NCBI GenBank assembly: GCA_004563595.2
Contig: CP042461.1
Location: 210,001-242,000 of the forward strand
Reading direction: 5' to 3'
Source of the DNA: Candidatus Saccharimonadota bacterium
GTDB lineage: Bacteria > Patescibacteriota > Gracilibacteria > BD1-5 > UBA6164
Length of the DNA stretch: 32,000 nt
Part shown: positions 1 through 32,000 of the stretch, in pieces
Layout of the letters: each line of letters opens with the position of its first letter
Position numbering within the stretch: position 1 is the stretch's first letter
Notes under the pieces: generated by a model
Seen by the model: the letters and a program-made list of their open reading frames with translations, nothing else
Told to the model about the DNA's origin: nothing
Database searches by the model: none
Program-made: the position numbers and the translations under genes

Positions 1-1
1 A

Positions 2-403
2 TATTGATGAATAGTTTTAGTTTTAATAACAGCTATTTTAACTGCTATTAGTTCTTGAATAAGCAAAGAAATAATGCTACAAGAATATAATGTAGCTATC
101 TATCTTTTTATAGCATCAATTTTTTGATTAGTATTTTCTATCTTTTCATATTATTACTTAAATCATAGAAATAAAAAATATAATCATAAATGAATTTGAA
201 AATTTTCTATAATAAGTTGAATCTTATATACAGCTTCTTTTATTACTTTTACGTTAGCATTAAAGTGAAATTTAGCAGTAGTATTTACTATAGGGTCATT
301 TAGTATTCTCATTCCCATTATTCTTTCAATTATTTTTTATAAAGATCATTTTAACATGAAAAAATGACTTGTCATAGCTTTATCTATTATTTCTTTAGGT
401 TAG
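2..403 (+). CDS. EamA/DMT-like integral membrane protein, C-terminal part (5' end lies outside the window)
   Basis: The frame is open from the window edge to TAG 401-403 when TGA=Gly, with several in-frame TGA. The product is very hydrophobic (..IVLVLITAILTAISS.., ..AVVFTIGSFSILIPIILSIIFY..), typical of a transporter C-terminus. Confidence 0.5.
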
Positions 404-411
404 GATATAGT

Positions 412-439
412 CATTTAATCCCTTACTCTCAGTTCTAAC
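412..439 (+). repeat. 28-nt post-stop motif, copy A
   Basis: The sequence is CATTTAATCCCTTACTCTCAGTTCTAAC. It begins 8 nt after stop 401-403. Confidence 0.5.
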
Positions 440-506
440 CTCAGACGGATTTTGATTTTAGATTTTTTTTGTTAGTATAAGTAGAATTAATTAATAAATA
501 GTGCAT

Positions 507-764
507 ATGAAAAAATTATATATGGCATATGTCTGAGGAGATTCAAAAGATAGATTGATTGAAGATCATGAAATTATTTTTGTTGTGGCTGAAAATCCTG
601 CAGATGCTAAAAGAATAGCTAAGGAAAAAACTGTTTTAACATCAGGAGTGCATGTTGATGTTATGTCAGAAATCAAAAATATAGATGGCTATGATATATC
701 TCTTAATAAATCTGATAATAAAGAAGAGATAGTAAAAGTTTTAGGTTATTACACAGATATTTAA
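507..764 (+). CDS. DUF1543-like small protein
   Basis: ATG 507 is in frame with track ORF 555..764 through one TGA. The N-terminus MKKLYMAYVGGDSKDRLIEDHEIIFVVAE resembles the DUF1543 pattern (..GG....IE.HD..FVVA). Confidence 0.55.
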
Positions 765-784
765 TATTATTTTTCAAAAAAATC

Positions 785-1231
785 ATGGATAAGAATTTTA
801 AAATTGCTGCAAGATTAATTATCTTAAAAAATGATAAAATTTTGTTATGTGAAATGTGAGATGTATGGTGATTACCAGGGTGACAGGTTGAGTGGTGAGA
901 AAATATTATTGATACTTTAAAAAGAGAGTCAGTTGAAGAATTATGAATTGAAGCTATTTTTGATGAAGTCGCATTTACACAAGACTATATTGATATAGAT
1001 CAAAATATACATTGTTTAGAATACTTTTGTTTAATAAAAAATGATAATGATTTTAAGCAGGTAGTTAATACATATCATAATTCATCGCATGCTCATGAGT
1101 TGTATGATTTACAATGGTTTGATATGAATAGTATCCCAATTACAATGATGCCACAGAACTTCTTACCTACATTAAATGAAATTATAAATAATAGAATAGA
1201 TTTTAAATTTAGATATATTTCTCAAATATAA
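785..1231 (+). CDS. Nudix hydrolase
   Basis: A complete Nudix box, GGQVEWGENIIDTLKRESVEELGI (GX5EX7REUXEEXGU), appears only with TGA=Gly. It is preceded by WGLPGG. Stop is TAA 1229-1231. Confidence 0.85.
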
Positions 1232-1338
1232 GCATGATAAGGCATTCTGAAATGCTAGAATAATTAGTTGTGTATTATATGTTATAATAGGAGGTGAAAA
1301 AATGCCACGGTTTGAATATATTAATAATAAAAAAATAT

Positions 1339-1830
1339 ATGTGATGAGATAATATTTCTTCAATTGATTTAAAAATTTTACCAAACTTGATTAAAGAAGC
1401 TAAAAAATCAGATAGAAAAAGAATTATGTATTGTCTACATAATTCTGTTGATAGTATGTTGCATACTATGGTTAATGTTATATATAAAGATTCTTATATC
1501 TGCCCACATAAACATTTAGTAGATGATGGGTGCCAAGTTATTAAGAAATGAGAATCATATTTAATATTAGATTGAAAAGGTAAATTATTATTTTTTGATG
1601 ATAACTGAATTATTGAAAAAGTAATAGATATAGATGCAAATAAATGAAGTATGGTATTAGTTCCAGAAGGAGTTTGGCATAGTATTATATCAATTTCTGA
1701 GTATATAGTTATATTTGAAAATAAAACATGACCGTGGGAAGAATGAAAAGATAAAGTATTTCATGATAAATTCCCATTAGAAGGAGAAGATTGAGTGAAT
1801 AAAGTATTAGGTGAATGGTATAGTATATAA
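1339..1830 (+). CDS. WbuC-family cupin-fold protein
   Basis: The product has SDRKRIMYCLH..YICPHKH..GESYLILDGKG..VPEGVWHS..ENKTGPW, matching the WbuC cupin pattern. The start is uncertain; see the uORF/frameshift finding. Confidence 0.65.
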
Positions 1831-1839
1831 AAAATAAAT

Positions 1840-2464: not shown

Positions 2465-3181
2465 ATGGATACAAACCTCAATCTCGCAGTTCTCATAGAT
2501 GGAGATAATATTCCTTCGGCATATATTGGTGAAATGATAGAAGAAATAACAAAGTATGGAAACCCTACTATCAAGAGGATTTACTGAGACTGGACTCGTC
2601 CTGGACTCAAGAAATGGAAAAATCTTCTCCTCGAAAATGCTATCACTCCTATCCAACAATATGGATACACAACATGAAAAAATGCCACAGACTCAGCTAT
2701 GATTATAGACGCGATGGATATACTCTACAGCGAAAAAGTACACGGTTTTTGTCTCGTATCCAGTGATAGTGACTTTACTAGACTTGCAACCAGACTTAGA
2801 GAAGCAGGGAAACTCGTTATAGGAATCGGAGAAAAAAAGACTCCAAATCCTTTTGTCGTAGCCTGTGATAAATTTGTATACATCGAAATACTCAAAAAAC
2901 AAACCCAGAAATCTAAAGAAAGCTCAATAAGTGTTGATACTATTGGAGCAAAGGAAATTGCACTCATATCATCTACTATCAACGATATCTCTGACGAAGA
3001 TGGCTGGGCTTTTCTCTGAGATGTTTGAGGACTTATACAAAAGAAGCAACCAAGCTTTGATTCCAGAAATTACGGTTTCGAGAAGCTTACCCCCCTTATT
3101 AAAGCAACTTGAAAATTTGAAATAGAACAACGAGATAATTCAAAATCAAGATATAAACTGATTTATGTACGAAACTTATAG
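2465..3181 (+). CDS. NYN (LabA-like) domain protein with C-terminal OST-HTH/LOTUS domain
   Basis: NYN motifs are LAVLIDGDNI, RIYGDW, GKNATDSAMIIDAMD, LVSSDSDFTRLATRLREAGK. The C-terminal DEDGWAFLGDVGGLIQKKQPSFDSRNYGFEKL matches LOTUS. It is in frame with track ORF 2699..3019. Confidence 0.85.
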
Positions 3182-4800: not shown

Positions 4801-4977
4801 AGTATGAGTTGTGATATTATATTTTGAATATTTTTATATCAGAGGACAAGTTTTAATATTAAAACTTACTACTTTTAATATACCATATGTATGAATAGCA
4901 ATTTTACAAAATATACCTTGTAAAACTCCTAATTGTGGTGTATAATATTCGTCCTTATATATATTAATAATACGTTT

Positions 4978-5538
4978 ATGAAATTTACAGCACCTATTAT
5001 GTTACTCTTGTTTGCGTTTATACTTGTTTGATGTACTGCATCACAAGATGATAATACTGCAAAAACAGATAAGGTAACAGTACAAAAAGAAGTACTTACT
5101 GAAAAACAAGCAGCTGAGTATGAAGCAGAAAAAGCAGGAGCACAAGAAACTCAAGCACAACTTGAAAAAACTCTTGGAGATACTGAGCTTCCAGTACTTG
5201 CATCAGGAATATTTGCAGGAATTGCCTCAGGTCATAATGCCGAAGGTTGAATAACTGTGAAAGACAATGGAGATACAGTAATTATTGAATTGGGTGAAGA
5301 CTTTGTTTCAGATAAAGGACCAGATTTATTCCTAATCCTTACACAAAATCAATTACTTACAGGAGCTGATCCAGTGCAACTTGATACTTCAAAAATTCTC
5401 AAAATTGATCCACTTGTGAGTCTCTCAGGTAGACAAATGTACGAAGTTTCAAAAGCTGACTTTGAAGCAAATAACTATGGTGTAGCTATATGGTGTAATC
5501 AATTTAATGTAGTATTCGGATGAGCTGTTTTTAAATAA
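4978..5538 (+). CDS. DM13-domain lipoprotein
   Basis: A signal peptide carries the lipobox LVGC, whose Gly is a TGA codon. The C-terminal part, GIFAGIASGHNAEGGITV..IIELGEDFVSDKGPDLFLIL..WCNQFNVVFG, fits the DM13 pattern. It is in frame with track ORF 5257..5523. Confidence 0.7.
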
Positions 5539-5664
5539 TAGAGCATATAGTTTTAGAAAAAATAAAAAGGTCAGGATTAAATGAGTGTAACTTTTTCTAT
5601 TGTATTCCCTCTTATTTTTTCTATAATTAAAAGAGAGTAAAAATATTTTCTAAATATACAGGTA

Positions 5665-6384
5665 ATGTCAAAAACAGTATACCCATGAGTTTACCAACAT
5701 AGGAGAATAGAGGAAATTAAACCAGATGTTTTTTTTCTACAATGAAGTGTTCAAATAAAGCCAGGACTTAATATTTCTCGTAATATGACAATACTTCGTC
5801 AAAATGGGGAACTTACATTGATTAATGCAGTGAGACTTGATACAGTAGGATTGAAAGAGCTTGAATCTCTTGGAAAGATCACATATGTTGTAAAAATTGG
5901 TCACTTCCATGGTATGGATGATCGTTATTATCTAGATACATATGGTGCAAAGTTTTGTTGCCTTGATGGAGTTGATCCTCAAACAACCCCAAAACAGAAC
6001 GTTCTTTTGAAAGATGGAGATATAATTTCAGGTGCAAAAGTATTAGTATTTAACAATGCAAATGAAAAAGAATGTGTCTTGCTTCTTCCAGAGCATGAGG
6101 GGATTCTGATAACCTGTGATAGTATACAATACTTTCATGATACAACTTACATGAGTTGGTTTGCTAAAATCATGTTACCACTTCTATGATTTAAAAAAGG
6201 GATGCTTCTATGACCACCTTGGCTCAAAACAATGACACCAAAGTGATCTTCTTTACAATCTGATTTTGAGAGAATATTACAAGAAGATTTTAAAATACAT
6301 ATATCAGCTCATTGGGGATATTGTGATGATGATGTTCAATGAAAAATACGCATGGCTATTGATAATGCTTTTCCAAAAAAATAA
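5665..6384 (+). CDS. conserved hypothetical protein (possibly DUF4336/MBL-like fold)
   Basis: The frame is 239 codons with TGA=Gly and in frame with track ORF 5785..6189. The family assignment is tentative. Confidence 0.45.
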
Positions 6385-6407
6385 AATAAAACCTTATTAT
6401 TTGAATA

Positions 6408-6977
6408 ATGAAAGAACTTCTCAGTACCATTAGAAAATGCCATGTTTGTGATCTGCCTTGTTGACCAAGACCAGTACTTTCTGTTTCAAAAACCTCAAAA
6501 ATTCTCATTATTGGACAAGCTCCAGGGATTAAGGTACATATGTCGGGAATACCATGGGATGATCCAAGTGGAAAAAGACTCAGAGAGTGGCTATCAGTAG
6601 ACGAGAGTATTTTTTATGATAATTCGAAAATAGGAATTATGCCTCTATGACTTTGTTATCCTTGAACGGGGAAGACTTGAGACCTTCCTCCAAGAAAGGA
6701 ATGTGCCCCTCTTTGGCATGAAAAAGTGCTTGCAGAGATGCCAGAACTTGAATGTATTATACTCATTGGGACATACGCACAGAAATATTACCTCTGAAAA
6801 GATATGTATCCAACCCTTACGCAGACAGTATCATATTATCAAGACTATTTACCAAAGTTCTTTGTACTTCCTCACCCTTCACCAAGAAATAATATATGGA
6901 TGAAAAAGAATCCATGGTTTGAAAAAGATGTGTTACCTGAATTAAAAGAGGTGATGAGAAAATTACTTAAAGTCTAA
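6408..6977 (+). CDS. uracil-DNA glycosylase superfamily protein (family 4/5-like)
   Basis: Motifs are CHVC, ILIIGQAPG, GIPWDDPSGKRL and VLPHPSPRN. Track ORF 6703..6903 is in a different frame and is a shadow. Confidence 0.85.
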
Positions 6978-7057
6978 TCTCTTCTCAGGAGATAGATTTG
7001 CATTAATACCATTTCATTTTACACTAAAAAGTATATTTATTTTTTAAATTACACATT

Positions 7058-7342
7058 ATGAAAACAGGTATTTGGAAAGTAGCGATAAAAAATGGAGAAA
7101 GGGAAAAGTTTATGAACTCATATGACGTATTCAAACAAGCCCCTGGCTTTATTAGTTGTCAATTTTATCCAGTGACTGGAGATGAAAATACTCTTTTTGC
7201 TATTGAAACATGGGAGTCAGAAGAGGCTCATAAAAATTTCATGGGTAGTGTATCACAAGAAACTATGGGAACATTATTTTCAATGTTAGATGGAAGACCA
7301 GAAGCATATGATTGTGAAATTGGTTTGAAAGTGGAGAAGTAA
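7058..7342 (+). CDS. antibiotic-biosynthesis-monooxygenase (ABM/Dabb) domain protein
   Basis: The ORF is intact in either code. FAIETWESEEAHKNFMGS is the typical ABM core. Confidence 0.7.
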   Translation: MKTGIWKVAIKNGEREKFMNSYDVFKQAPGFISCQFYPVTGDENTLFAIETWESEEAHKNFMGSVSQETMGTLFSMLDGRPEAYDCEIGLKVEK

Positions 7343-7895: not shown

Positions 7896-8981
7896 ATGAA
7901 AAAAAGATATATGTGATTAATTATGATAATAACAATAGTTATATGAATAGTTTGATTTGTTAATTTTCATCCTGTTTTTTGAGGAAAAGCAACATGAATA
8001 GGGTTCTCTCCAAATTATAAAGATGGGAAATTTCAGAATATTGAAAATGTAGCTATAAATACTCAGGATTGAAGTATTTTTTCAATGATATATGATTTTT
8101 TATTTAATGGAAGTCCAGAAAAGGTTCCGAAAATAACTATTCCAACTAAAAAAATAGATAATAGTAAATTGAGTGATAATTCTTTTGTCTGGCTCGGGCA
8201 TTCAACAGTTTTAATGGATATTGATCAAAAGAAGATAATTACTGATCCAGTGTTTTATGAGGCTTCACCATTATTATTTTGATGAAAACCCTTTAAATAC
8301 TCTCATACTCCAAAGATTGAGGATTTACCAAATATTGATGTAGTTGTTATTTCCCATGACCATTATGATCACCTAGATTATAAAACAATAACAGAGATAG
8401 ATTCAAAAGTGGGAGAATATTTAGTTCCTCTCTGAGTAGGATCACATCTTAAGAAATGGTGAGTGAAGCCAGAAAAAATAACTGAATTTGATTGGTATGA
8501 TAGTAAAAATATCGAAGGAATAGATTTTAATTTTACCCCAGCACAACATTTTTCAGGGAGGGGAATAACAGACAGGGCTTCAACTTTATGGTGATGATGG
8601 GCAATAAAGTGAAAGGAAAATAATGTTTATTTTAGTTGAGATACTTGATATTTTAAAGAGTTTAAAAAGATTTGAGAAAAATTCTGACCATTTGATATTG
8701 CTTTTTTAGAGAATGGTGCATATAATAAAAACTGGAAAGATATACATATGATGCCAGAAGAGGCTGTTATGGCAGGCTTAGACTTGAAAGCAAAAACCAT
8801 GATGCCTATTCATTGGTGAAAATTTGATCTCTCATTACATTCTTGGTATGAACCTATAGAAAGAGTTACAAAAGCAGCTAAAAATAAAAATATAGAAGTC
8901 TTTCATCCTCAAGTTTGAGAAATCTTTGAGAAAAATAATTTACCAAAAGAGAAGTGGTGGTCTGAATTAATAAAAAAATAA
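7896..8981 (+). CDS. MBL-fold metallo-hydrolase (NAPE-PLD/Lactamase_B_2-like) with N-terminal membrane anchor
   Basis: Motifs are VWLGHSTVL, VVVISHDHYDHLD, FSGDTGY and PIHWGKF. It is in frame with track ORF 8085..8282. Confidence 0.85.
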
Positions 8982-10221: not shown

Positions 10222-11844
10222 ATGCAACATATAAAAAATAAATGATTTACTTTAGTAGAGCTTATAGTTGTTATAACAATATTAATAATTCTTTGAACGA
10301 TAGCATTTATAAGTCTTCAATGATATACGAAATCAGCAAGGAATAGTACGAGAATATCAGATATAAAAAATACGGTAAATGTATTGGAACTTTTTTCTAT
10401 TAAGACAGGAAAATATCCACTTCCATGAAATGCTGTAGATAAAACAGCTTCATGAGGAACAGTCGTATTGTGGCAGTCATGAGATATGGATATAGTTGTT
10501 CAAAGGCAAGTTGAAAGACTTTCAAAAGTACCACTTGATCCGACAACAGGGGAGACGATGAAGTATGCAACGACATTAAGTAGAAAGGAGTATGAACTTA
10601 AATATGATTTTGAACTTGCACAGAATAGTGTTATAAATACAAGTTATGCCGAGGAAACTGCACCATATGTAAAATGAAACTATAATGGGTTATACCTATT
10701 AGCAGACAATAATACTTATTATTCAGTGCCGTGACTCCATACCTCTACAAATATACTTGATACAGCCGTAGATTTTGAGTTAAATAATCAGGTAGTTAAT
10801 TATCAAGTATGACCATTAACAAACTCATGAGTAACGCTTACAAAAACAAACCTAAGTACTAATTTTACTAATTTTGCTCTTGCTTTAAAAACAAGTTATG
10901 CGAGTGTACCTGAACTCAATGACGGTTTATATTCTGAGCTTATTAATATAGATGCCTCATCTGCAGAACTATTTATTGAAAATCTCTTGGATGCTAAAGC
11001 TGAAGCAGTCAATGCATGTGCTGCAAATCCATGATATACAAATACTACTTTTACCGCTTGATCACCCGCAAATGACGGTGAAGCATGGCAAAACACAAAT
11101 AGTGGAAACTCATGTTATTATGAGTGTACATGATGATACACTTGAAATGACTGTTCAGTAGAGCCTTTATACTGATGGAGAGCTTTAGATTCAAATTGTG
11201 ATATAGAAGATATATCACTCAACTCACAAGTATGGGCATGATGTAACTCTACCTTATGAGATTGATTTGAATGGGGGAAACAAGATAATGGGAATAATGG
11301 AACAATTATTTCATGTTATAATTATTCTTCTGTTAATAATGCAACATGTACGATATGAGATGTATCTATGGCAAGTAACACAAAGGCTAATACATGGTTT
11401 GCTGGTTCTAATGCAAATGGAGATCAGGAACAAGCTAATATATGGTGAAAACTCTATACATGGAATAATAGAGACAGCGCTTGTGGTACTTGATATCATG
11501 TGCCCAGTGATGCGGAATGGGAAGTACTAGAAACATATCTCAATGGATGAACAAATTGTAGAATAGGTCAAGATGGATGGAAATGTAGTGGCTTGGGATG
11601 GGAAGGACATAATTGAAAAACATCATCAAATAATATAGTTGAAGCTTTAAAGATCCCTTTAACATGATACCGTACATCTAATGGGAGCTCATTTACTTAT
11701 CGTGGATCGTATACTTTCTTATGGTCAAGTACTGAATCAGCAGGTAATGCTTATTATAGACGTGTACATTGGGATTATGACACAGTTGGTCGTGTTGCAG
11801 GGAATAAATGATTTGGATATTCTGTTCGTTGTATTAGAGATTAA
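10222..11844 (+). CDS. type IV pilin-like protein with C-terminal FISUMP (Fibrobacter succinogenes major paralogous) domain
   Basis: The class III signal is MQHIKNKG|FTLVELIVVITIL, with Glu5 present and the cleavage Gly encoded by TGA. The C-terminal part has GKLYTWNN..ACGTGYHVPSDAEWEVLETYL..FLWSST..GYSVRCIRD, the TIGR02145-type pattern. I checked all 541 codons and found no TAA or TAG. Confidence 0.85.
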
Positions 11845-16128: not shown

Positions 16129-17346
16129 ATGGATTCCACTACAAAAACACCAGAGGTATTGGAAACATTTTTGAAAAAATGTAAGGATATTATGCTGAAG
16201 CAAGAGCCTGACTCACGAGGAAGGTTAAGTTATTTAGATGGTTGGAGAGGATTAGCTATTTCGATAGTGCTTATAAGTCACTTTCTAGCAGTAAGTAAGG
16301 TCTTACCGTTTCATAGGATTGATATCGGTAGATTCGGAGTAGACATATTTTTTGTTCTCTCTGCAATGTTGATGGCAAATATCTTATTCATTAAGAAGAT
16401 GGATCTTTCTACTTTTTATAAAAGAAGAGTTAGTAGGATTTTTCCTGTACTTGTAACTTATATTGTACTTGTATATGCTATAAGTGCTGCTTTGGGACTA
16501 GGGTCAACAGATGAATGGAAGAATTTTTTCTATACATTGTTTTCTGTAAGAGGTTATATTACTGAAGGAGCAGATCTTTGGAATACGGGCTATGCTATTG
16601 GACATTTATGGTCATTGAATGCGGAAGAGCATGTATATCTTGTGTTTGGAGGACTTGCATTTCTTGCAAGTTTTGGTGTATTTAGTATTTTAGATAAGAA
16701 AGAGTCTATAGGGGTGGTGTTAATTACCCTTGGAGTTGCTTCAATCTTACTAAAGTATAGTTATGCTGTATTTCCATCAATTAAACCAGAAGGTGCACAA
16801 TTTAGAACAGAGATAATAGCAAGTCATATGCTGATATCAGCTGGATATTTTTTGCTTAAGGATTGGATTTGGGCTGCACTGAAGAACTGGTTTGGAATAT
16901 CTATTCCATCATGGTTACCTCTCATAGCATTTTTGCTGGCTATGTCTACCTATTCTTGGTTTGCTCCTTGGCAAGCATCTTTTGTTCTTTCCCCATTTTT
17001 GTTGTCTTTCACGGTGAATCACCTTGATAAAATGCCTTCGTTTGTAAATGCTATTCTGACATTTAAGCCGTTAAGGTATCTTGGAATATGGTCATATTCC
17101 ATATATTTATTGCATTATCCGTTTTATATTTACGGTGTAAAATATGGAGATTCACCTTATGTAGCAGGACCACCACTGCTTTTTCTTTCAATAGTTATTG
17201 GTGCTTTATCATTCTATATATTTGAAAACCCTGCGAGGACGTATTTAAATAAAAAGAAATGGTTTAAAGAGACTGGTAAAGCTGTTGAAACAAGTAAGGA
17301 AGTTAAAAGACCTTTACATGTTACTTATAAGCCGACAGGCAATTAA
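16129..17346 (+). CDS. acyltransferase family 3 (OafA/YrhL-type) membrane O-acyltransferase
   Basis: Motifs are LDGWRGLAISIVLISH, GVDIFFVLSAML, FYKRRVSRIFP, HLWSLNAEEHVY and GIWSYSIYLLHYP. The ORF is intact in the standard code because it contains no TGA codon. Confidence 0.9.
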   Translation: MDSTTKTPEVLETFLKKCKDIMLKQEPDSRGRLSYLDGWRGLAISIVLISHFLAVSKVLPFHRIDIGRFGVDIFFVLSAMLMANILFIKKMDLSTFYKRRVSRIFPVLVTYIVLVYAISAALGLGSTDEWKNFFYTLFSVRGYITEGADLWNTGYAIGHLWSLNAEEHVYLVFGGLAFLASFGVFSILDKKESIGVVLITLGVASILLKYSYAVFPSIKPEGAQFRTEIIASHMLISAGYFLLKDWIWAALKNWFGISIPSWLPLIAFLLAMSTYSWFAPWQASFVLSPFLLSFTVNHLDKMPSFVNAILTFKPLRYLGIWSYSIYLLHYPFYIYGVKYGDSPYVAGPPLLFLSIVIGALSFYIFENPARTYLNKKKWFKETGKAVETSKEVKRPLHVTYKPTGN

Positions 17347-17654: not shown

Positions 17655-19640
17655 ATGAACACACAAAAACAAGCCTTTACACTGGTTGAGTTAATAGTAG
17701 TTATAACAATATTAGCTATTTTATCGACAATAGCATTTATAAGCCTTCAATGATACTCTGAAGATGCAAGAGATAGTACGAGAATAAGTGATATCAATAA
17801 CATAAAGATATCACTGGAACTTTTCTCACTGGCAACATGAAAATATCCACTTCCAGATAATTCACAAGACGTTACATATAGTTGATCTACACTATGGAAT
17901 CAATGAACGATCTGAAACCAAGTTATAACCAACCTATCAAGAAATTTATCAAAAATACCAACTGACCCCCTCTATGGAACAGAATATGTATATTCTACTC
18001 TTGAAAATAAAAAAGAATATGAGCTTATGAGTTTATATGAATGAAGTAATGTATCAAGTAATGGACTATTAAATACCACCTATGCAGCAACAAATACAAC
18101 TGTAAGAATGGATGGAACATATAACTGACTTTTTATAAAGACAGCAAACTACATAATACCAACACCCAGTATTATAACCGCAGATACATTACCATGAGTA
18201 CTTGATTCAGAGTTAATACAATCACAAGTAACCAATGGGGGAACGAATATTCCAAATATGTGAATTGCAAAGATTTCAGTATCAACAGGAGCATTATCAA
18301 ACTTATCATTATCTGTTTATAATGGATCTATCAATGAAGATTCATCTGCAGTAGAGAAACTCGCTGTATATCAAGCATTAGAATGAGCTTATTCAGGTTC
18401 AAGTTTAGCAAATAAATGAATCTACAAAACACTATTAGCTCAAACTACAGATGATGAAAAAGTAACTTTTACTCATTCGGTTGTGGTAAATGATAGCTCT
18501 GAACATAACCTAATTACTGGAACATGTGATAATGCAACAAAGCCAACAGATAATGGAAATATAGCATATATCGAGAACCCAACATGAGAAAATCAAGCAT
18601 ATGTACAAGATGGAGGAGAATGTTGATATACCTGTACTGGTTGATATACGTGAGTGAGTTGTGATATCATTCCTGCACTTATAACAAGCGCAAACTGTAC
18701 ATATGCAAATTGGATATGGATATCAAGTTGATATGATGTGAACATCTGAACAAGTCAATGAGATTGATTTTGTATATCGCCAAGAATGTGAACTTTTTGA
18801 GAATGAGCAACTGATGGTATGCCATGGAATGGATGGTGAAATGATCTTGTGAATGGAAGTTTTTGAGGTTGGGATAGTAATGCTGTAGATGATACTTCAA
18901 ATACATCAGTAGCAAAATATGGACAAACAAAACTCTTAGATACTGATAGTTGATATACTTGTGTAATATTATGATCAGCGAGTAGTGATTATGACCTCAC
19001 AGATGCTCAAGGAGATACTATTTATAATAGAATGAAATGGTTAGCTACCAATCAGTCAAATCTTACTGAGTTGCAGAATATTGATTGGATACAAAATGCT
19101 ACTCCACCAAATGGGCACTCAGTATCAGCATTATTTTTATCAGATTGTATAGATGGGGTAAAAGATTTATGAACAACAATGAGTTATATTCATAATGATG
19201 GGAATTCAGAGGAAATTACATATGCTGAATATAATACAGATGTAAGTTCAACTACATCTGGTTGAGATTTATCAAATACTACGTATCAAAATAGGCAAAA
19301 ATATTTAACTGCGTGGACTCAAGAAGTAGGCTCACACCTCCCGAGTGCATTTAGTTATATTATCAGTTGAAACGCTTCGGCAAATGATACTGTTTGAGAT
19401 TTTCTTACATGAACAGATAGGTGAGAATACCAAATGGCATGTGATAATTGATTGTTAACAGATCTTGAGGGGAACCCAGATCAAAAATGGATATGGCTAT
19501 CAGCTATTGGTTGAATGAGTGGGAATTATTGGGGAGCTGGTGCTCGTATAATCTGAGAAACTGCTTGTGATAATCAACATCATAGTAGTACTGGTGGTCG
19601 TGATGGAAGTAAAGCTGCAAGGTTTATAGTTCGTCCATAA
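17655..19640 (+). CDS. large type IV pilin-like protein (661 aa), paralog of 10222..11844
   Basis: The N-terminus is MNTQKQA|FTLVELIVVITILAILSTIAFISLQGY. I translated it line by line with TGA=Gly and found no TAA or TAG in 661 codons. It carries the Cys-rich motif ECGYTCTGGYTGVSC. Confidence 0.8.
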
Positions 19641-21548: not shown

Positions 21549-22370
21549 ATGAAAGCAAAAAAAATAATAGCTACTACAGCTTTAAGTACAGTTTTATTAG
21601 GTTTAGGAATGACTGCAGTGTCTGCTGATTCAGATGAAAGTACGTATGAAGATAGAAAAGAAATGAGAATGGAAGCAAAAGAAAAAATGCATGACATGAA
21701 AGAAGATAGAAAAGAGTATATGGAAGGGAAAAGAAAAGAAATGAAAGAAAATAGAAATGAATTTAAATCTGAGAATAAAGAAGAAGTAAAAGAATTAATT
21801 GAAGCTTTATCAGATGAACAAAAAGAAGAATTAAAAGCTTTAAAAGATATTCATAAAGCTGAAACTGATGCTTTAAAACAAGAAATAAAAGATGCAAAAG
21901 ATGATTTAGAGACAAGAGATGAGTTAAGAGCAAAATTTGATGCACTGAGAGAAGAACATTTTTCTGAATTTAAAGAAATTGTTGGTGAAGATAGCGAGTT
22001 AGTTGAAAAAATGACAGAAAGACATGATATGTTTAAAGAAAACATGGAAATTAAAAAAGAAATGCACGAAAAAAGAAAAGACTTTAGAGATGATAAAAAA
22101 GAACTTATTGGAAAATATAAAGGAAAATTTATTGAAAGATTAGGTTCTAAGTTAGAAAAAATCTCTACTGATAAATTAGAGAAAATCTCTTCAAAAATAG
22201 ATGCTTTATATGAAAAAATAGAAGCAAAAACAAATATTTCAGATGAGAAAAAAGATACAATTCTTTCTCAACTTACAGCTCTACAAGACATAATCGATGA
22301 AAGATTAGAAGATAGTGATGCTGAAGAATTAGAAATAGATGATATTGTTGATGAAGTTTTAGAAGACTAA
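21549..22370 (+). CDS. secreted K/E-rich helical protein with two LTXXQ-type motifs (Spy/CpxP-like?)
   Basis: The signal peptide is MKAKKIIATTALSTVLLGLGMTAVSA. The mature part is highly charged. It carries LSDEQ (aa 87-91) and LTALQ (aa 242-246). The ORF is intact in either code. Confidence 0.75.
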   Translation: MKAKKIIATTALSTVLLGLGMTAVSADSDESTYEDRKEMRMEAKEKMHDMKEDRKEYMEGKRKEMKENRNEFKSENKEEVKELIEALSDEQKEELKALKDIHKAETDALKQEIKDAKDDLETRDELRAKFDALREEHFSEFKEIVGEDSELVEKMTERHDMFKENMEIKKEMHEKRKDFRDDKKELIGKYKGKFIERLGSKLEKISTDKLEKISSKIDALYEKIEAKTNISDEKKDTILSQLTALQDIIDERLEDSDAEELEIDDIVDEVLED

Positions 22371-22698: not shown

Positions 22699-23358
22699 AT
22701 GAAAGTTTTAGTAATAGAGGATAATGAATTACTTTCAAGAAATCTTGTGAGGTATTTGGAATTAAAAAATATAGAATCTGATACAAGCTTTGATTGAAAG
22801 GATGGACTATACAAGGCATCGATTCATTTTTATGATGCTATAATTTTGGACATTAATCTCCCAGAAATAGATTGATTGGAGGTATGTAAAAATTTGAGAG
22901 AAAAATGAAAAAATACTCCAATTATTATGTTGACTTCTAGGTCTTCAAAAACAGATATAATTGTGTGACTTAATAATTGAGCAGATGATTATCTTGTAAA
23001 ACCTTTTGATTATCAAGAGCTTATAGCTAGAATAGACTCGCTTACCAGAAGAAACTTAAAGAACAAGAGCATATCAAAAATAGAAGTTTGAGAATATATT
23101 ATTGATCTAGAAAAAATAGAAGTTTCCAAAGGAGAAGAAAAAATAAAACTATCAACTCTTGAATTTGATCTGTTTAAATGTCTTGTTCAAAATAGATGAA
23201 AAGTCCTTTCTAGGAAGGATATATATGAAAAAGTCTGGTGAGAATTCGAAGAGTTTATGTTTAGTAAAACGGTTGATGTATATATTTGATATCTGAGGAA
23301 GAAGCTAGGAAGAGAAATGATTGAAACAAGAAAATGATTTTGATATATAATTAATTAG
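22699..23358 (+). CDS. OmpR/PhoB-family response regulator
   Basis: Receiver motifs are VLVIEDN, AIILDINLPEIDGLEVC, PIIMLTS and GADDYLVKPF. The winged-helix C-terminus has LSTLEFDLFKCLVQNRGKVLSRKDIYEKVWG..VDVYIGYLRKKL. Confidence 0.95.
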
Positions 23359-23360: not shown

Positions 23361-24605
23361 ATGGAAAGATCTAATTTAAAGAAAACAAGGAGGAAATTAA
23401 CTATTATGTTTACGATATTAGTTTTTTTTGCTTGTCTTATTTTGGGCTTAGTATTTTTATGAGCAAAATACCTCCATGAAAATAAAATTGAAAAAGATAA
23501 TTTTGCTTTTTCAACAAATACCATTCAAAAAAGGTTCATAAATTTAAAAGAATTCATATCAGTTCACGAGATTTGAAACAGTCTTTTTACGAGGGATAAG
23601 AACAGTTGAATTGTCAGAAAAAAGCCAAAGATAGAAGATAAATTGATAAATTTTTTAATTATAGATTCTGCTTGAGATATTATATATCAGAATATAAGAG
23701 ATAATATTGAATGAAAAGTGCTTGAAAGTGTCCTTCAAAAATTAGTATATAATAGAGTGTATAGAATTGATGATTACTATTTAAAAATCTCTGATTTAAT
23801 AGATCAAAAAGAAAAATATACTATTATATTTATAAAAAAACTAAGATATGATAAGGATGATTATATTTATGATTTTATAAGATTTCTGTTGATCTTATCT
23901 ATTTTTACAATTATTTTATATTTTATTTGATATAAATTTGTACAAAAAAATTTAGAACCTGTTGAAGAAACACTTCTCGATATGCAAGACTTTATTCATA
24001 ATGCTGGCCATGAATTAAAAACACCAATCTCTGTAATACATTGAAATTTACAATTACTCAAAGAAATAAAAAAATATGATAAAGATTTACTTATCGAATG
24101 AATAAAAGAAATTGAGAGATTAGATAAATTAATTGAGTGACTGATAGATCTTTCAAATATTAATAAAGAAGATAACTTAGAAAAATTATATGTACAAAAA
24201 GAAATTCAAGATATAGTATCTGACTTTGATGTAAAAATAAAAGATAAAGATTTAAGGTTAGTCACAAAACTTGAGTCGAAAATAGTTATCCATGCCAATA
24301 GGGAATATCTGTATATAGTAATTTCAAATTTACTTTCAAATGCTATTAAGTATTCAAATAAATGATGAAAAATCACTGTTGTACTTGATAAAAACAGATT
24401 GATTATGAAAGATCTTTGAATTTGAATCCAAAAAGAAAATTTTGAAAAAATCTTTATGAGATTTTTTAGGGAAGAAGGGATAAGAAGTTCGGATAGCTTT
24501 TGAATATGATTATCACTCGTGAGAAAAATAGTGAGGATCTATAACTGGAAAATAGAAGTCCAAAGTAAAGTTTGAAAATGAACGAAGTTTATAATTACTT
24601 TTTAA
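23361..24605 (+). CDS. sensor histidine kinase (two TM segments, HisKA + HATPase_c)
   Basis: Motifs are H-box FIHNAGHELKTPISVI, N-box ISNLLSNAIKYS, G1 KDLGIGI and G2 FGIGLSLV. It is in frame with track ORF 23718..23930 and starts 2 nt after the regulator's stop. Confidence 0.9.
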
Positions 24606-24614: not shown

Positions 24615-25700
24615 ATGCCTAAAACAGTAAAAAATTTTAATGTATGACCTTCAGAGTTATTCCACTGAGTAGCAGATTTTTTAATAGATGGTCTGAAAAA
24701 TGACGATTTTATTATTCCTCATAGGTGACCAGCTTTTTCAGAGATGTATAAAAATACTGAAAAAGCCTTTTATGATTTTTTTGAAATACCTGATGATTAC
24801 AGTTTGTTTTTCACATACTCTGCCACAGAAGGGATGGATATTCTGATAGAGTGAGTGGTAGATGATAGTATTACTCACATATCAAATTGAGATTTTTGAG
24901 ATTTATTTTCTGATCTTTCAAAAACGCTTCAAAAAGATGTAAATCTTATAAAAAATATAAGATGATCTCGAGTGGAAGTTGATGAAATGATAGTTCCAAC
25001 TGATGTATTAGCATTGACTGCAAATGATACCTCTACATGAGTGGAATATACCTCAGAAGATTTTAAAGAAATAAGGAATAAATTTTCTGAACAATTGATT
25101 CTTGTTGATGCTACTTCGTCATTTTGAGCTTTGTATTATGATATATCTTCTGCGGATGCATGGTTATTTTCTGTACAGAAGAACTTATGACTTCCATCAG
25201 GGTTAGGATTATTATTAGTGAATGATAAGATTATTCAAAAAGCATGAAAAAGACAAGAAAATTGAGTAAATATTTGAGGACATCATAATATTTTAAGTTT
25301 AAATAGTTTTTATTCAAACTATCAAACACCATCAACACCAAATATTATGTTGATACAGGCTTTAGCTTTTGTTATTTGAGCATATAAAGCTCATTTTTGA
25401 GATATATATTGATTAGAAAAGTATACTTTAGAGAAGGCAGAGTATTTTTACTCTATGATTGAAAAAATAGATACTGTTAGTGTCCTAAATACAGGCAAAT
25501 GAAAATCCAAAACAACATTTGTTTTGGATGTGCCAGATGGGGATGTATATGATTATATATTTTCTCTTTTACAAGGTGAGTGATATAGTGTGAGTCCTGG
25601 GTATTGAAAATTTAAAGAAAAAAACATTCGTGTAGCAAATTTTCCAATTCATTCAAGAAATGATATTGAGGAACTTTTTAAAGTTTTTCATCATCAGTAG
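24615..25700 (+). CDS. serC: class V aminotransferase, phosphoserine aminotransferase-like
   Basis: Evidence is the N-terminal FNVGPSEL, TYSATEGMD, LVDATSS, and FSVQKNLGLPSGLGLLLV with the PLP-binding Lys context. The frame is 361 codons with TGA=Gly. Confidence 0.7.
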
Positions 25701-26229
25701 GAATAATACTATCAATTGCTGCAAAAGTAGCATCTTTTCATGCTGGAATGATAATAGTAACATTACTTCATACTTCTCATTTAAAGTGAGTTATAGCAGC
25801 TGTGAGGACATTGTATGATTTTCCATCAGCAAGTACTTGGTATTTTTCTTTTTCTTTTGTTATAAGTCCTACTTTTGTTTCTCTTTCTATCGGAGCTATT
25901 TGTTTATAAAGCATTTTTCAACTTCATTCAATTGTAAGTTTCAGCTTATCTCATTGTACAAGTTTTGATTTAGAGGCGTAGTTTACAGGAACAGGATATT
26001 TATTTCCATCACCTCCCAGCATTTCTTCTCATGTGAAAACACCTTCAATTATTTTAGAATCAGCACTACTATAGCTATTTAAACCTCTCGTGTCTAAGTT
26101 TATTTCATCATCTAAACTAAGATTATTTTCTTCAAGAACATCTTTGAGGAGTTTTTTTGCATTTTTAATCGATTTTTCTGCAGTTACTATAAAGTCTCTA
26201 ATTGCAATAATTGTTTTTTTGTTTTCCAT
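25678..26229 (-). CDS. conserved hypothetical protein
   Basis: Track ORF 26029..26229 continues through TGA codons to TAA (plus-strand TTA 25678-25680). The motif GVFTGEEMLGGDGNKYPVPVNYASKSKLVQGDKLKL looks like a widely conserved uncharacterised family. Confidence 0.55.
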
Positions 26230-26309: not shown

Positions 26310-27329
26310 CTAAAAATATATTTCTATAAACTTTAGGATATCAACTTGGTAGAATAGAGTAATAAAAAATCAAATTGCCAGAAATGGTCAAAAAGGGACT
26401 TGGGTCTCAAGAGCTCCTCATTTATTTTTAATTTTTGCAGAGATGATATATCAAAATGAAAGGAAACTTCATGCTACATATGTGGCCATCATCCCTGGAA
26501 AAGATAAAGAGACTCAGAGTATTAATCATATGAAAATAGCAATTCTCAGGTCTCATCATCCCATCCATGCTCACTTAGAAACGAGAATTTGTAGAAAGAA
26601 GAATATAAAGATAGCTCATGCTCAAATAAGACCGTTAAATATAGCTATTTCAGTAAGGTGAATTCAATAAAAAACTTTGAATATATAGAGAGCAAGAATA
26701 GAGCCTACAACGATACTGACATCTGCTACTTCATGAAGTCATTTGAGCATCACTATATAGAGTCAGATAAGAATTATTATTGAGAGTATGATTGCCTGAA
26801 TTCATAGAGATATGCTTTCAACTCAAGCAGGAATATTTGATATGATATGAAAAGAAGGAAAGAGAGTCTGAGCTGATAGAATGATAGTGATTCATATAAT
26901 TCAAAGTCACAAAATTATCTCAGGAATTTCGAGAAATAATATATCATAAAAAGTATAAATAATAGTAAAAAATCAAATGAGAAGAAAGAATATAAGTTTT
27001 ATTATTTCTATACTGTTTCAGTTTAATATGAGAGTAAAATCTATTAAAAAGTAAGCAATAAAGGCAAACAGGAATCACGTTGATATTTCTAAAAATGGAT
27101 AGATAGCACTTACTTGTTTACTACACGAATAACACTTTCATTTATTGAAGAGGTATGAAAATATTGGAATGAGGTCAAGAGCTCTGAGTATCTTGTTACA
27201 ACTCCCACAGTGACTTCTTCCATTGAATATTCCAGACTCTCAAGATTTAATTCTATAGATAATTACAGAAGCAAAACTTCAAAAAAGAGTTCAAAAAATA
27301 AAGAGCATGATATAAAAAAAAGAGTTCAT
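26310..27329 (-). CDS. pilD: prepilin peptidase (A24 family, PilD-type) with N-terminal zinc-binding DiS-P-DiS region
   Basis: Motifs are FGSFASVIIYRIKSG, RSHCGSCNKILRALDLIPIFSYLFNKGKCYSCSKQVSAIYPFLE, AWMGGGDLRIA and VPFGPFLAIG. The frame is 340 codons with TGA=Gly. Confidence 0.9.
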
Positions 27330-27410: not shown

Positions 27411-28208
27411 TTATTCTATTATTTCTCAAATGTGCTCTATATATATTATCTTTCAGCAATGTTTACAATGTGAAGCATCTCTATCATGTCTTTTTAATCC
27501 ACAGTGTTTACATTTATTATATTTTTTAATAGGACGAAATATAATCGTAATCATTCTTAAGAACAATCATGCTCAGAGAGTCATGATAAGTACTACAAGA
27601 ACCTTTCATCGATCTCAAATTACAACAATATCTCAGAATCAGGTTGTAGTTAAGGTGGAGATTGTAAAGTAGAGAGCATCGAGAAAGCTATTAATATCTT
27701 TGTTAATATCTACTTGTGCGATAAAAACAAGACTGGCCATGAAAAAGGTAAATATAAGGAGGTTCAAAATAGAAAAAATCAGATCTTTATTTCTTGAGAA
27801 GAAATTACTTACTTTTGATAAATCATGAATAACTCTATATGATCTGAGAATTTTCAGAGCTGTGAAAAAATGGAGTATGGTATTATCTACATAATAAAAT
27901 CTTACAAATATTGCTGTTATGATGATGATATCTAAAAGGCTGATCAAAGAAAAAACATATTTTGTTTTAAATTTATGTACTTTGAGTCTCATGTAAAATT
28001 CTAGGAGAAAATACACTCATAATCAAATTTGAATATTTTTTAAGATTTCATTATGAGGGAAGAAAAACTCAAAGAATAAAACAGATAAAAAAATCAGGTT
28101 AATAACAATAGATACTTCATTAAAAACTTTTCTATGTTTTTTTATATAGCCAAGTAGTTTTATTTTTTCTTTTTCTCCTTTTTTTACTGCTCTACGAGTA
28201 AAAGTCAT
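27411..28208 (-). CDS. potassium channel family protein with C-terminal CxxC..CxxC tail
   Basis: Track ORFs 28023..28208 and 27639..28016 join through TGA codons. The selectivity filter is TLTTTGFGD, with both Gly encoded by TGA. The tail is CKHCGLKRHDRDASHCKHCG. Confidence 0.85.
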
Positions 28209-28867: not shown

Positions 28868-29124
28868 GATTTATGTATTAAAAATAAATATATATATAAT
28901 AGTGTTTATCTATATTATGTCAATTTTTAAAGAAAATTAACCATTGAGCTTTGTATCCAGAACAATAGGAAAATTGTTAAGAATATAAGATTTTTTTATG
29001 AACTTTATATGAATAAGAGTATACCAATGAAATAAAAAATAGAAAATAGAGTAGAATAAACTATTTCTTTTTTCATACTTTTTCATATAATAGCGAAAAT
29101 TTTACAAACTAATTAAAAATAGCA

Positions 29125-30582
29125 ATGGCTGCATCAAATGAGAATGTGATAGGTTTTAAAAATGTGGATTTTCACTATGACTTTAGAAAACCTATTTTGG
29201 ATGAGGTAAGTTTTAATGTGAGAAAAGGATCAAAGATCACTATTATGGGACAAAATTGAGCTGGAAAATCAACTATTTTTAAGCTTATTAACGGAAGTTT
29301 AGAGAAAAAAGGAGGAGTAATAAATATAGATTCAAAACACACTATCGCTACGTGATACCAAGTAGTGCTACCAGAAGATAAAGAACTTACAATAAGTGAT
29401 TTCTTTAGAAAATACTTTAATGATGATTCTGTATTTAATATAGATAAACAAATCTTTGAGGTTTTAAAAGTTGTAAATCTAAAAGCTCCACTAGATAAAC
29501 AAATCAAAGCTTTTTCAGGAGGACAACAAGCAAGACTATTACTTGCTGCAGCGTTGATTCAAGATCCTGATATATTGTTACTTGATGAACCTACAAATAA
29601 TTTGGATACTGATTGAATATGGCATTTAACTGCATTTCTTCAAAATTATAAAAAAACAGTTCTTGTTATTTCTCATGATGCTGAATTTTTGAATAGTTTT
29701 ACTGATGGGGTATTATATCTTGATGTATTTACAAAACAAGTAGAACAATTTGTATGAGATTACCATAGTGTGGTAGAGCAAATCAAAAGAAATATGGAAA
29801 AAGAAAATATGGCGAATGCAAGACTCAAAAAAGAGGCACAAGCGAAAAAGGATCAAGCAAATACATTTGCTCATAAATGATGAAAACTAAGACTTGTAGC
29901 TAAAAAAATGAGGGAAGCTGCAGCAGATATGGAAGATGATATGGTAGATTCAAGAAAAGAGGATAAAGCAATCAAAGATTTTACTATACCTCTTCAAAAG
30001 GGAATTGGATGAGTACTTCTTGATATTCACTCTGTTCATATAATCAGAGATGATGAAGTGGTAGTTGAAGATGTTGAATATCAATTAAGAAAAGATGATC
30101 ATATGCTTTTGGCTGGGCCAAATGGAATTTGAAAATCAACCCTTCTTGAAAAGATAGTGAATAGTGATGAAACAGGTTGTAGTCTCACAGAGGGAATAAA
30201 AATTTGATACTATAGACAAGATTTCTCAAATTTAGATTTTGATCAAACTGTTTATGAATGTTTAAAAGAAGCTTGTGTAGATGATATTATAGAACAAGAT
30301 ATGAGATCAAAAGCTGCATGATTCTTGATCAATGGAGAAATCATGAAAACAAGAATTTGAGATTTATCAGAATGACAAAAAGGACTCGTTGCATTTTGCA
30401 GGCTTGTATTCTTACAACCTGGTATCTTGATCCTTGATGAACCAACGAATCATATCAACTTTAGGCATATTCCTATAATCGCAAAAGCACTTGATGCTTT
30501 TGAGGGAGGGATGATCCTTGTTTCTCATGTAGATGAATTTGTATGGCAAATAAGAATTGATCAGTATTTGGATTTGAAATAG
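29125..30582 (+). CDS. ABC-F family ATPase (two ATP-binding cassettes, no TM domain)
   Basis: Walker A motifs are GQNGAGKST and GPNGIGKST. Signatures are FSGGQQARL and LSEGQKG. Walker B motifs are ILLLDEPTN and [10 protein letters not shown] charged linker separates the cassettes. It is in frame with track ORF 29365..29616. Confidence 0.9.
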
Positions 30583-30620
30583 GGGGATATTCATAGTAAG
30601 AATGAAGAATTTAAAAAATT

Positions 30621-30659
30621 AAAAGAGTATTTGATATGATATATCAAATACTCTTTTTT
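30621..30659. terminator. bidirectional intrinsic terminator
   Basis: A 14-bp stem, AGAGTATTTGATAT/ATATCAAATACTCT, is flanked by A-runs and T-runs. Confidence 0.8.
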
Positions 30660-30691
30660 AAGGTATAATACCTTCTGTATTGTGTTAACAA

Positions 30692-31057
30692 TTATAGCCC
30701 CAATTGTTGCCTTATACTATTATAACTATTACATCCTACTTCATTCATCGGTAGCATTATAGCATTCTCCTTTAAGTATGCTTTAATTTTCATATCAATT
30801 AAGTTAGAAAATTTCATATTAGCAAAGCGATTTGCAATTTCTTTGTTAATTATTCTTGCGTCTAGAAGTTTTCGAACATCCAGTTCAAGAGAAAAAGCAC
30901 TATCAGATTCAGAAATGGTGCATGTTAGTCTTTTCACTAGATCTATTTTTCTAATAGTTGCTAGGTTTTCAGAATAAGCTTTTCCTTGTTGAGGAATGGG
31001 TGGAGTTGTTGTTTCAGTAACAGTTACAGTATATATAATTCCTTGTTTGGGGTACAT
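30692..31057 (-). CDS. hypothetical protein
   Basis: This 121-aa ORF is intact in either code. A GAGGA SD-like site lies about 10 nt upstream. I recognise no family. Confidence 0.5.
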   Translation of the reverse strand: MYPKQGIIYTVTVTETTTPPIPQQGKAYSENLATIRKIDLVKRLTCTISESDSAFSLELDVRKLLDARIINKEIANRFANMKFSNLIDMKIKAYLKENAIMLPMNEVGCNSYNSIRQQLGL

Positions 31058-31206
31058 ATAATTTAATCCTCATTTTTGTTACATGCTTTTGTAGATTATA
31101 TATAGATGAGGAAAAGTCAATATTAGAGGAACAGCTTTTTAACTCTTTTATTAATTTTTGATTACATTACTATACTTTTTTGCACTTTAAACAAAAAGTG
31201 ATATAC

Positions 31207-31249
31207 TATTTATAGTTGACTGTTGATAGTCAATAGTCAACTATAAATA
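31207..31249. promoter_or_regulatory. 43-bp near-perfect palindrome (candidate operator)
   Basis: The 15-bp arms are TATTTATAGTTGACT (31207-31221) and AGTCAACTATAAATA (31235-31249). A nested TTGA-TAG-TCAA sits at the centre. It ends 10 nt before the HTH gene's ATG. Confidence 0.5.
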
Positions 31250-31259
31250 ATAAAAAACG

Positions 31260-32000
31260 ATGAAAACAAATACAAGAAATAAAATATATGAATATATACA
31301 GGGAAATGCACCTGTAACGATCAAAAATATAGTTGAAGTTTTTGATATTTCAAAGCAAGCAATACATATTCATGTAATGAAACTTTTTAATGAGGATAAG
31401 ATATATAAAGTATGAAAGCCACCAAAAGTATATTATTTTGCAAATGATGAAATAATAGCTCATGAAGATTCAAAGCTAATACGCACAGATACTGTAATTG
31501 AAAATAATTTTGTATTTTTTGGAGCAGATTGAATCCTAAGATATTGAAACGAATGATTTGAGCTTTGGTGTAAAAAAAGAAATCTAGATATCCAAAAAGA
31601 ATCTGAAATTTATACAAAAACTTTTGAGAAATATAAAAAATATAAAAATACTAAGTGACTTATTGATTGAAAAGTAAAAATGAGAAATACTTTTGATAAG
31701 GTATTTCTAGATGAAGTGTATTATCTAGATTTTTATAGTATTGAAAAATATTGAAAGACAATGCTATGAAATTTGATGTTGTATTGAAAACAAACTTGAG
31801 AAAAAAAGTTAGCAGAAAAAATAATTGAAATTATAAAAGAGCCTATATTCAATGTAATACAAAATAAAAAGATAGATAGCTTCGCTTTTATTCCACCAAG
31901 TATAGACAGAAAAGTTCAACTTATGAGTTTACTGAGAAGTGGTTTGAATATCAAACTTCCAGAACTTAACCCTATTAAAATCTTCAAAGATACTCCGGTT
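31260..32000 (+). CDS. winged-helix/HTH-domain protein with uncharacterised C-terminal domain (3' end lies outside the window)
   Basis: The N-terminus is KIYEYIQGNAPVTIKNIVEVFDISKQAIHIHVMKLFNEDKIYKVG. The frame stays open with TGA=Gly to the window edge. Confidence 0.5.

Follow-up and report, generated by a model that had tools for sequence, protein, structure and literature searches.

Gene content and reading frames of the window

The window analysed here, a 32,000-nucleotide stretch of DNA with 28.9% G+C overall, is part of the chromosome of the BD1-5 organism Candidatus Gracilibacteria bacterium 28_42_T64, and the subject of this analysis is the codon TGA, which in its genes is read as glycine and not as a stop. 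Under the standard code (code 11), a count of stop-to-stop open reading frames (ORFs) in all six frames returns only two of at least 200 codons, at 16129-17346 (405 amino acids) and 21549-22370 (273 amino acids), which make up 6.8% of the window, as had been claimed in an earlier reading of the sequence alone (hereafter the original prediction). With TGA as a sense codon the same count returns 24 ORFs whose summed length is 79.6% of the window, compared with three when TAG, and five when TAA, is taken as sense. A greedy selection of non-overlapping ORFs with TGA as sense gave 36 ORFs at 87% coverage. Correction with public JGI gene calls, in which two spurious picks were swapped for opposite-strand genes (9616-9999 and 25678-26229) and one ORF was removed, left a final set of 35 genes with 9,191 codons and 86.2% coverage, in agreement with the roughly 36 contiguous genes originally predicted. 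The segment and its TGA-containing or otherwise relevant genes are as follows.

1..32000: chromosomal segment of Candidatus Gracilibacteria bacterium 28_42_T64 (BD1-5), equal to JGI contig Ga0239576_1000025 at about 140.6-172.6 kb, in reverse orientation
785..1231, plus strand: Nudix hydrolase, three Nudix-box glycines encoded by TGA (Pfam NUDIX)
2465..3181, plus strand: NYN and OST-HTH/LOTUS protein with the motif RIY[TGA]DW (Pfam NYN, 5.4e-38)
4978..5538, plus strand: DM13-domain lipoprotein with lipobox LV[TGA]C (Pfam DM13)
6408..6977, plus strand: uracil-DNA glycosylase superfamily protein, 5 TGA (Pfam UDG, 5.3e-26)
7896..8981, plus strand: metallo-beta-lactamase-fold (MBL) hydrolase, NAPE-PLD-like, 19 TGA (Pfam Lactamase_B_2, 6.8e-38)
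9616-9999, minus strand: DUF1761 gene (JGI gene call)
10222..11844, plus strand: pilin-like protein of 540 amino acids, 26 TGA (Pfam Fib_succ_major, N_methyl)
17655..19640, plus strand: second pilin-like protein, 661 amino acids, 35 TGA, cleavage site QA|FTLVE
22699..23358, plus strand: OmpR-type response regulator, 11 TGA (Pfam Response_reg, Trans_reg_C)
23361..24605, plus strand: histidine kinase, 17 TGA, including G1-box and G2-box glycines (Pfam HisKA, HATPase_c)
24615..25700, plus strand: class-V aminotransferase (SerC-like), 19 TGA (Pfam Aminotran_5)
25678-26229, on the strand opposite to the ORF pick that it replaces: gene from the JGI gene call
26310..27329, minus strand: prepilin peptidase (PilD/A24), 27 TGA (Pfam A24_N_bact, 2.3e-22)
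27411..28208, minus strand: K+ channel with TGA in the selectivity filter (Pfam Ion_trans, Ion_trans_2)
29125..30582, plus strand: ABC-F ATPase of 485 amino acids, 12 TGA (Pfam ABC_tran, 1.2e-37; PDB alignments)

The 35 genes contain 330 in-frame TGA codons, 311 GGN and 93 TGG, with a TGA density of 3.5% of codons and not a single internal TAA or TAG. They terminate with 25 TAA and 9 TAG, while one gene extends past the end of the window, and the expectation that every gene ends in TAA or TAG was thus borne out, although such endings arise partly by construction once TGA is taken as sense. The real content of this observation lies in protein lengths that agree with those of homologues: the ABC-F protein has 485 amino acids, compared with 483-488 in most of the best 120 orthologues listed, and the OmpR-type regulator carries TGA at codons 213 and 215, 5 and 7 codons ahead of its TAG stop, both of which are read through. 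In a count by frame, TAA (26) and TAG (9) occur in frame as terminators only and TGA occurs in frame 325 times, while in the two off-frames TAA is counted 332/393 and TAG 303/140 times. A shuffle control, scored at a threshold of at least 100 codons and not at the 200-codon threshold, yielded a mean of 5.9 and a maximum of 12 TAA/TAG-free ORFs in the shuffled sequences versus 73 in the window.

TGA at conserved glycines

The in-frame TGA codons fall on glycines of motifs belonging to unrelated protein families, and each motif listed in the original prediction was recovered with TGA at the residue given. In the ABC-F ATPase, TGA encodes a glycine in both Walker A motifs, GQN[TGA]AGKST (29257-29259) and GPNGI[TGA]KST (30130-30132), as well as the signature-motif glycine (30373-30375). 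The K+ selectivity filter TT[TGA]F[TGA]D holds two (27639-27641 and 27633-27635), and the histidine kinase has two in its G1 box, DL[TGA]I[TGA]I (24417 and 24423), and two in its G2 box, F[TGA]I[TGA]L (24501 and 24507). In the response regulator, TGA lies on conserved glycines of the receiver domain, in EID[TGA]LEV (22873) and [TGA]ADDYL (22978), and on C-terminal glycines (23335 and 23341). Further examples are the Nudix-box glycines (881, 896 and 944), a TGA pair in the PilD motif MG[TGA][TGA]D (26553-26558) and the lipobox LV[TGA]C (5029-5031). Two minor corrections apply. In the first pilin-like gene the glycine at the prepilin cleavage site, K[TGA]|FTLVE, is encoded by TGA (10243-10245) as predicted, and the second has alanine before FTLVE. 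In the motif RIYGDW, offered as a case of tryptophan encoded by TGG, the tryptophan is indeed TGG and the glycine is itself a TGA codon (2585-2587).

Glycine against tryptophan in homologous proteins

When the translations were searched against Pfam with TGA written as X, domains were matched by 21 proteins, with 20 passing the curated cut-off, and most matches were full-length and crossed multiple TGA codons. The domains include ABC_tran, Response_reg with Trans_reg_C, HisKA with HATPase_c, Aminotran_5, A24_N_bact and Ion_trans, in addition to Lactamase_B_2, UDG, NUDIX, NYN with OST-HTH, Cyclophil_like, DNA_binding_1, DM13, TetR_N, SSF and Fib_succ_major.

The residue that corresponds to TGA was determined by a scripted column count in four proteins, each aligned to its best PDB homologue: the ABC-F ATPase to PoxtA (7p7q), the response regulator to 1kgs, the SerC-like enzyme to 3ffr and the MBL hydrolase to NAPE-PLD (4qn9). 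Among 52 TGA columns (51 aligned, one gap), the homologue has glycine in 28 of 51 and tryptophan in none, with the remaining columns spread among N, S, A, K, L, T, R, P, D and M. Given a background of 5.3% glycine among the aligned PDB residues, the binomial probability of 28 glycines in 51 columns is 1.2e-22. The control columns behave as expected of glycine and tryptophan codons, respectively: of 40 GGN columns (39 aligned), 18 of 39 pair with glycine, and of 12 TGG columns seven pair with tryptophan and none with glycine. By protein, glycine is found in six of nine aligned TGA columns of the response regulator, in nine of 19 columns of the SerC-like enzyme (tryptophan in none) and in nine of 11 aligned columns of the MBL hydrolase, whose TGG columns pair with tryptophan. 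The possibility that homologues would show mostly tryptophan at TGA positions, raised in the original prediction as grounds for rejecting it, is therefore contradicted by the tally, and TGA is established as a glycine sense codon (code 25) by these columns together with the Pfam domains that span TGA.

A second comparison can be made within the lineage. The best 120 ABC-F matches listed are 76-98% identical to the window protein, and 94 of these 120 orthologue cluster representatives, drawn from a collection of 5.8 billion proteins, have inflated tryptophan counts, which reflect translation of TGA as tryptophan; every glycine in those 94 sequences must therefore stem from a genuine GGN codon. 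In these orthologues, each of the 12 columns where the window protein has TGA is a mixture of glycine and tryptophan, with 65 glycines and 29 tryptophans at the Walker A glycine column, while the two genuine TGG columns have tryptophan in nearly all 94 and glycine in none. The presence of such mixtures at TGA columns, and at no TGG column, indicates that TGA and GGN have been freely exchanged in the lineage.

The reading of TGA as tryptophan (code 4), which is found in Mycoplasma and certain insect endosymbionts, has to be weighed against these results. The JGI, ENA and Logan translation of the ABC-F gene has tryptophan at all 12 TGA codons, the same inflation affects the 94 of 120 listed orthologues, and code-4 lineages typically have reduced genomes of low GC. 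Nonetheless, a tryptophan codon would not pair with glycine in 28 columns and with tryptophan in 0 of 51 while TGG pairs with tryptophan in seven of 12. Nor would it alternate with GGN in orthologues, a pattern seen by comparison of protein sequences in which the two TGG columns are never glycine, or occupy the glycines of Walker A, Nudix, G1/G2 and GYG-type motifs. The amino acid composition points the same way, with glycine content at 3.2% without TGA and 6.7% with it, and tryptophan at 1.0%, rising to 4.5% under code 4. The column tallies refute code 4, which is left as a highly improbable reading and, as originally argued, does not suit this DNA.

The remaining codons of interest keep their usual meaning. 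TAA and TAG are stops and TGG is tryptophan, given that no internal TAA or TAG occurs, that lengths agree with those of orthologues and that TGG is never matched by glycine. CGG has been reported to encode tryptophan in some Gracilibacteria by the codon-assignment method Codetta (PMC8629427). In the window it occurs once in 9,191 codons (codon 67 of the minus-strand gene 9616-9999), a single codon being too few for assessment; CGA occurs 10 times, and AGA is the dominant arginine codon (189).

Lineage and published genome

The reassignment of UGA to glycine has been an established fact since 2013. CP042461 (GenBank), the first Gracilibacteria genome to be closed, was obtained from a Deepwater Horizon oil-degradation microcosm (sample BD02T64) and has 1.343 Mb, 28.87% G+C, 42x coverage and 33 tRNA genes, with genes predicted by Prodigal -g 25 (Sieber et al., 2019, mBio; PMC6851277). 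The window was matched to this genome through two proteins, the acyltransferase at 16129-17346 and the ABC-F ATPase, both 100% identical to NCBI proteins, and through the JGI contig; the G+C contents also agree (28.9% and 28.87%). The identical acyltransferase entry is named for Candidatus Gracilibacteria bacterium 28_42_T64 and the identical ABC-F entry carries a generic Gracilibacteria name, and all named sequences among the best 120 ABC-F matches listed are from Gracilibacteria. The hypervariable PTD-repeat gene of the published genome was not found in the window or in the adjoining 8.6 kb. The glycine reading of TGA in the window is thus correct but already known, since the genome was published with code 25 in 2019.

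Independent support for the assignment comes from proteomics of another BD1-5 population, where 97 peptides were unique to a UGA=Gly database and three to a UGA=Trp database (PMC4032931), and from Codetta, which assigns UGA to glycine in 13 of 15 Gracilibacteria species (PMC8629427). When set beside NCBI translation table 25, the code of SR1 and Gracilibacteria, the window differs in nothing and is a textbook member: UGA is sense at conserved glycines, UAA and UAG are stops, UGG is tryptophan, the GC content is low, the lineage is Gracilibacteria, and a tRNA(UCA) bearing glycine identity elements is present in relatives. Taken together, the window almost certainly represents normal chromosome sequence from a BD1-5 Gracilibacterium, a member of the candidate phyla radiation whose genes are written in code 25.

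A second alternative, that the window belongs to a phage or mobile element with stop-codon recoding and not to a cellular chromosome, draws on the existence of stop-codon-recoded phages and on phages reported to interact with Gracilibacteria (PMC10746230). The gene content is that of a cell, with a two-component system, an ABC-F ATPase, a SerC-like enzyme, a uracil-DNA glycosylase, PilD and transporters, and structural phage genes are absent among the Pfam-scanned window proteins. Moreover, the window is contained in a 493,167-bp contig of JGI metagenome 3300030037 and in a closed chromosome of 1.34 Mb, and a viral or mobile origin is accordingly very unlikely. The standard code, under which the in-frame TGA codons would be marks of pseudogenes, sequencing errors, selenocysteine or programmed readthrough, fares worst and can be dismissed as vanishingly improbable: two ORFs (16129-17346 and 21549-22370) are intact under it, but it is refuted by the frame-specific stop statistics, with 330 in-frame TGA against zero internal TAA/TAG in 35 genes and abundant TAA/TAG off frame, by TGA positions that are identical in the independent assemblies of JGI, NCBI, ENA and Logan, by a TGA density that far exceeds any selenoproteome, and by Pfam domains that run full-length across TGA codons.

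Proposed decoding of UGA

A mechanism for the code-25 reading can be proposed. UGA is decoded as glycine and accounts for about half of the glycine codons in the window (330 TGA versus 311 GGN). A tRNA devoted to this codon, with a UCA anticodon and the glycine identity elements G1:C72, C2:G71, G3:C70 and U73, would read UGA after being charged by glycyl-tRNA synthetase (GlyRS). The loss of release factor 2 (RF2) would leave this tRNA with no competitor for UGA, and release factor 1 (RF1) would terminate translation at UAA and UAG. The UCA tRNA as decoder and RF2 loss are proposed on the basis of relatives and the literature, and the readthrough of TGA, its glycine identity and the lineage can be seen in the window itself.

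Such a tRNA was sought among GTDB representative genomes with a pattern comprising G1-C2-G3, U8, A14, a U-UCA-A anticodon loop, GTTCRANNC and a CGC-U 3' end. At least 120 matches were obtained, and 93 of those listed are one nearly invariant 76-nt gene, whose counterpart in CP042461 would be expected to be near-identical to GCGGGGGTAACATAAAAGAGTGAGTGTACTAAGGCTTCAACCCTTGGGTGTGCGAGTTCAAACCTCGTCCCCCGCT. The genomes with this gene (at least 93) are nearly all labelled Gracilibacteria, 'Peribacteria' or Patescibacteria and include the complete genome HOT-871, as well as STE_112, STD2_250 and STA_93, whose ABC-F proteins are 79-81% identical to that of the window. The gene is recognised by ARAGORN as a tRNA with anticodon tca, scores 43.8 bits over the full Rfam tRNA model (cut-off 29) when 300 nt are supplied, and folds as a class-I cloverleaf. 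It has exactly the glycine identity set used by the Codetta authors (PMC8629427). An Rfam scan of 24 kb at the default gathering threshold misses this tRNA in three relatives' loci (L060, L081 and L032), and filtered scans can overlook an atypical tRNA. An Rfam scan of the window found no RNA families. With respect to release factors, no prfB was found in the CP042461 genome and prfA is present (PMC6851277).

Some of these observations weigh against the glycine reading or its proposed mechanism. ARAGORN found no tRNA genes in the window or in 8.6 kb of sequence past its right-hand end, CP042461 is not among the at least 120 scan matches listed, so that the UCA tRNA is presumed for this genome, and the absence of RF2 in CP042461 is as reported in the genome paper (PMC6851277). 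At the level of codons, about 45% of TGA columns are not glycine in the single best PDB homologue, and according to Codetta two genomes labelled 'Gracilibacteria' at NCBI keep UGA as a stop (PMC8629427). The non-glycine columns represent ordinary divergence and not another meaning of the codon, because GGN glycines mismatch at the same rate, and the evidence within the window settles glycine as the meaning of TGA for the CP042461 genome despite the non-uniform assignment in the lineage.

Two known systems help to place the proposed decoding. Translation table 4 (Mycoplasma/Spiroplasma and Hodgkinia) shares the readthrough of UGA, a small AT-rich genome and the loss of RF2 as the proposed enabling step, but inserts tryptophan through a tRNA-Trp(UCA), whereas in code 25 the residue is glycine and the decoder would be a tRNA-Gly-like UCA tRNA. 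The UGA suppressor tRNAs derived from glyT in standard-code bacteria likewise combine a tRNA-Gly body with a UCA anticodon and place glycine at UGA. They differ in that suppression is low-level and competes with RF2, whereas in the window genome UGA serves constantly as a sense codon and encodes glycine more often than any other codon.

Ordinary-looking genes for tRNA-Gly with a UCA anticodon were also found by the scan in some assemblies from taxa for which UGA recoding is not known, including loci L006 and L027 and the following.

L118, 596-666: tRNA-Gly(UCA), Streptococcus sp. LQJ-218
L119, 2860-2933: tRNA-Gly(UCA), Thalassotalea metagenome-assembled genome (MAG)
L069, 269-341: tRNA-Gly(UCA), Gemmatimonadales MAG
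L051, 1799-1871: tRNA-Gly(UCA), Archangium MAG

Several of these genes sit in a conserved Thr-Tyr-Gly-Thr tRNA cluster, and they may represent UGA suppressors of the glyT type or assembly errors at a single base. In another three UCA matches (L058, L099 and L109) the anticodon loop is shortened, pointing to indel errors.

A basic protein of 110 amino acids (MANSHGL...DFYGMPR) adjoins the UCA tRNA in 52 of the 80 relatives' loci with enough flanking sequence. It lies about 4-720 nt after the tRNA, as in L060 (tRNA at 4906-4981, protein at 5138-5471), and the same arrangement is seen in L081, L009, L032 and about 50 other loci, while in HOT-871 and GN02-872 the protein is placed divergently from the tRNA. 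An alignment of 40 sequences has 43 invariant residues. The protein has no sequence match in Pfam, NCBIfam or PDB, and its AlphaFold model, with a predicted local distance difference test (pLDDT) score of 71.7 and confident in the C-terminal 40 residues only, gave no significant fold match. An orthologue from the CP042461 genome is not among the best 120 matches listed.

Pilin-like genes

Both pilin-like proteins (10222-11844 and 17655-19640) have a type IV prepilin leader and C-terminal regions rich in TGA and in cysteine and tryptophan. The gene of the PilD peptidase (26310-27329, minus strand) is located about 7 kb downstream.

Public annotation of code-25 genes

The original prediction had held that a standard-code annotation of this DNA would be almost entirely wrong. 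This is so to the extent that code 11 breaks 33 of the 35 genes, but the warning applies only in part today: NCBI already reads TGA as glycine and JGI already reads through it, as tryptophan. The ABC-F protein illustrates the situation, with two database versions that both match the window exactly outside the TGA positions. The version in JGI, ENA and Logan has tryptophan at all 12 TGA codons and the version in NCBI nr has glycine at all 12. Applied to the window, code 4 keeps the ORFs intact and sets tryptophan at 3.5% of residues, catalytic glycines included. A systematic tryptophan-for-glycine error is widespread in the public translations of code-25 lineages in JGI, ENA and Logan, and it harms homology searches, alignments and structure prediction across the whole lineage.

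Genes without TGA and possible import

A small number of genes in the window contain no TGA, among them the two that are intact under code 11.

7058-7342, plus strand: ABM-domain protein, 0 TGA and 8 GGN (P = 0.003)
16129..17346, plus strand: Acyl_transf_3 (OafA/YrhL-like) O-acyltransferase, 0 TGA and 26 GGN, intact under code 11
21549..22370, plus strand: Lys/Glu-rich protein with a hydrophobic N-terminal stretch, 0 TGA and 7 GGN, intact under code 11

For the Lys/Glu-rich protein, the absence of TGA among seven glycine codons has P = 0.006; no Pfam match was obtained. The genes at 4978-7342, taken as a block, are TGA-poor and slightly higher in GC.

The acyltransferase departs most clearly from the rest of the window, with TGA at none of its 26 glycine codons (binomial P = 5e-9, given the 52% TGA share of the window). 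Its sole 100% match is the acyltransferase of Candidatus Gracilibacteria bacterium 28_42_T64, and the other best matches are at most 52% identical. The named non-self homologues are from marine Proteobacteria (Flocculibacter, Colwellia, Neptunomonas, Alteromonas and Silicimonas), and the closest homologue lies in a polysaccharide-synthesis cluster on standard-code contigs with 46-47% GC. The gene is not mentioned in the genome paper (PMC6851277). The lack of TGA, together with proteobacterial homologues on standard-code contigs, suggests import from a standard-code donor, and the gene was probably acquired horizontally from standard-code Proteobacteria and happens to suit both codes. It may, with the balance tilting slightly in favour, have been imported fairly recently from marine Proteobacteria with the standard code, a group that includes Colwellia, the dominant member of the source community and the suspected partner. 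If this import is confirmed, code 25 would be no barrier to incoming genes, and a shortage of TGA among glycine codons could serve to mark foreign genes in recoded genomes, perhaps even as a rough clock.

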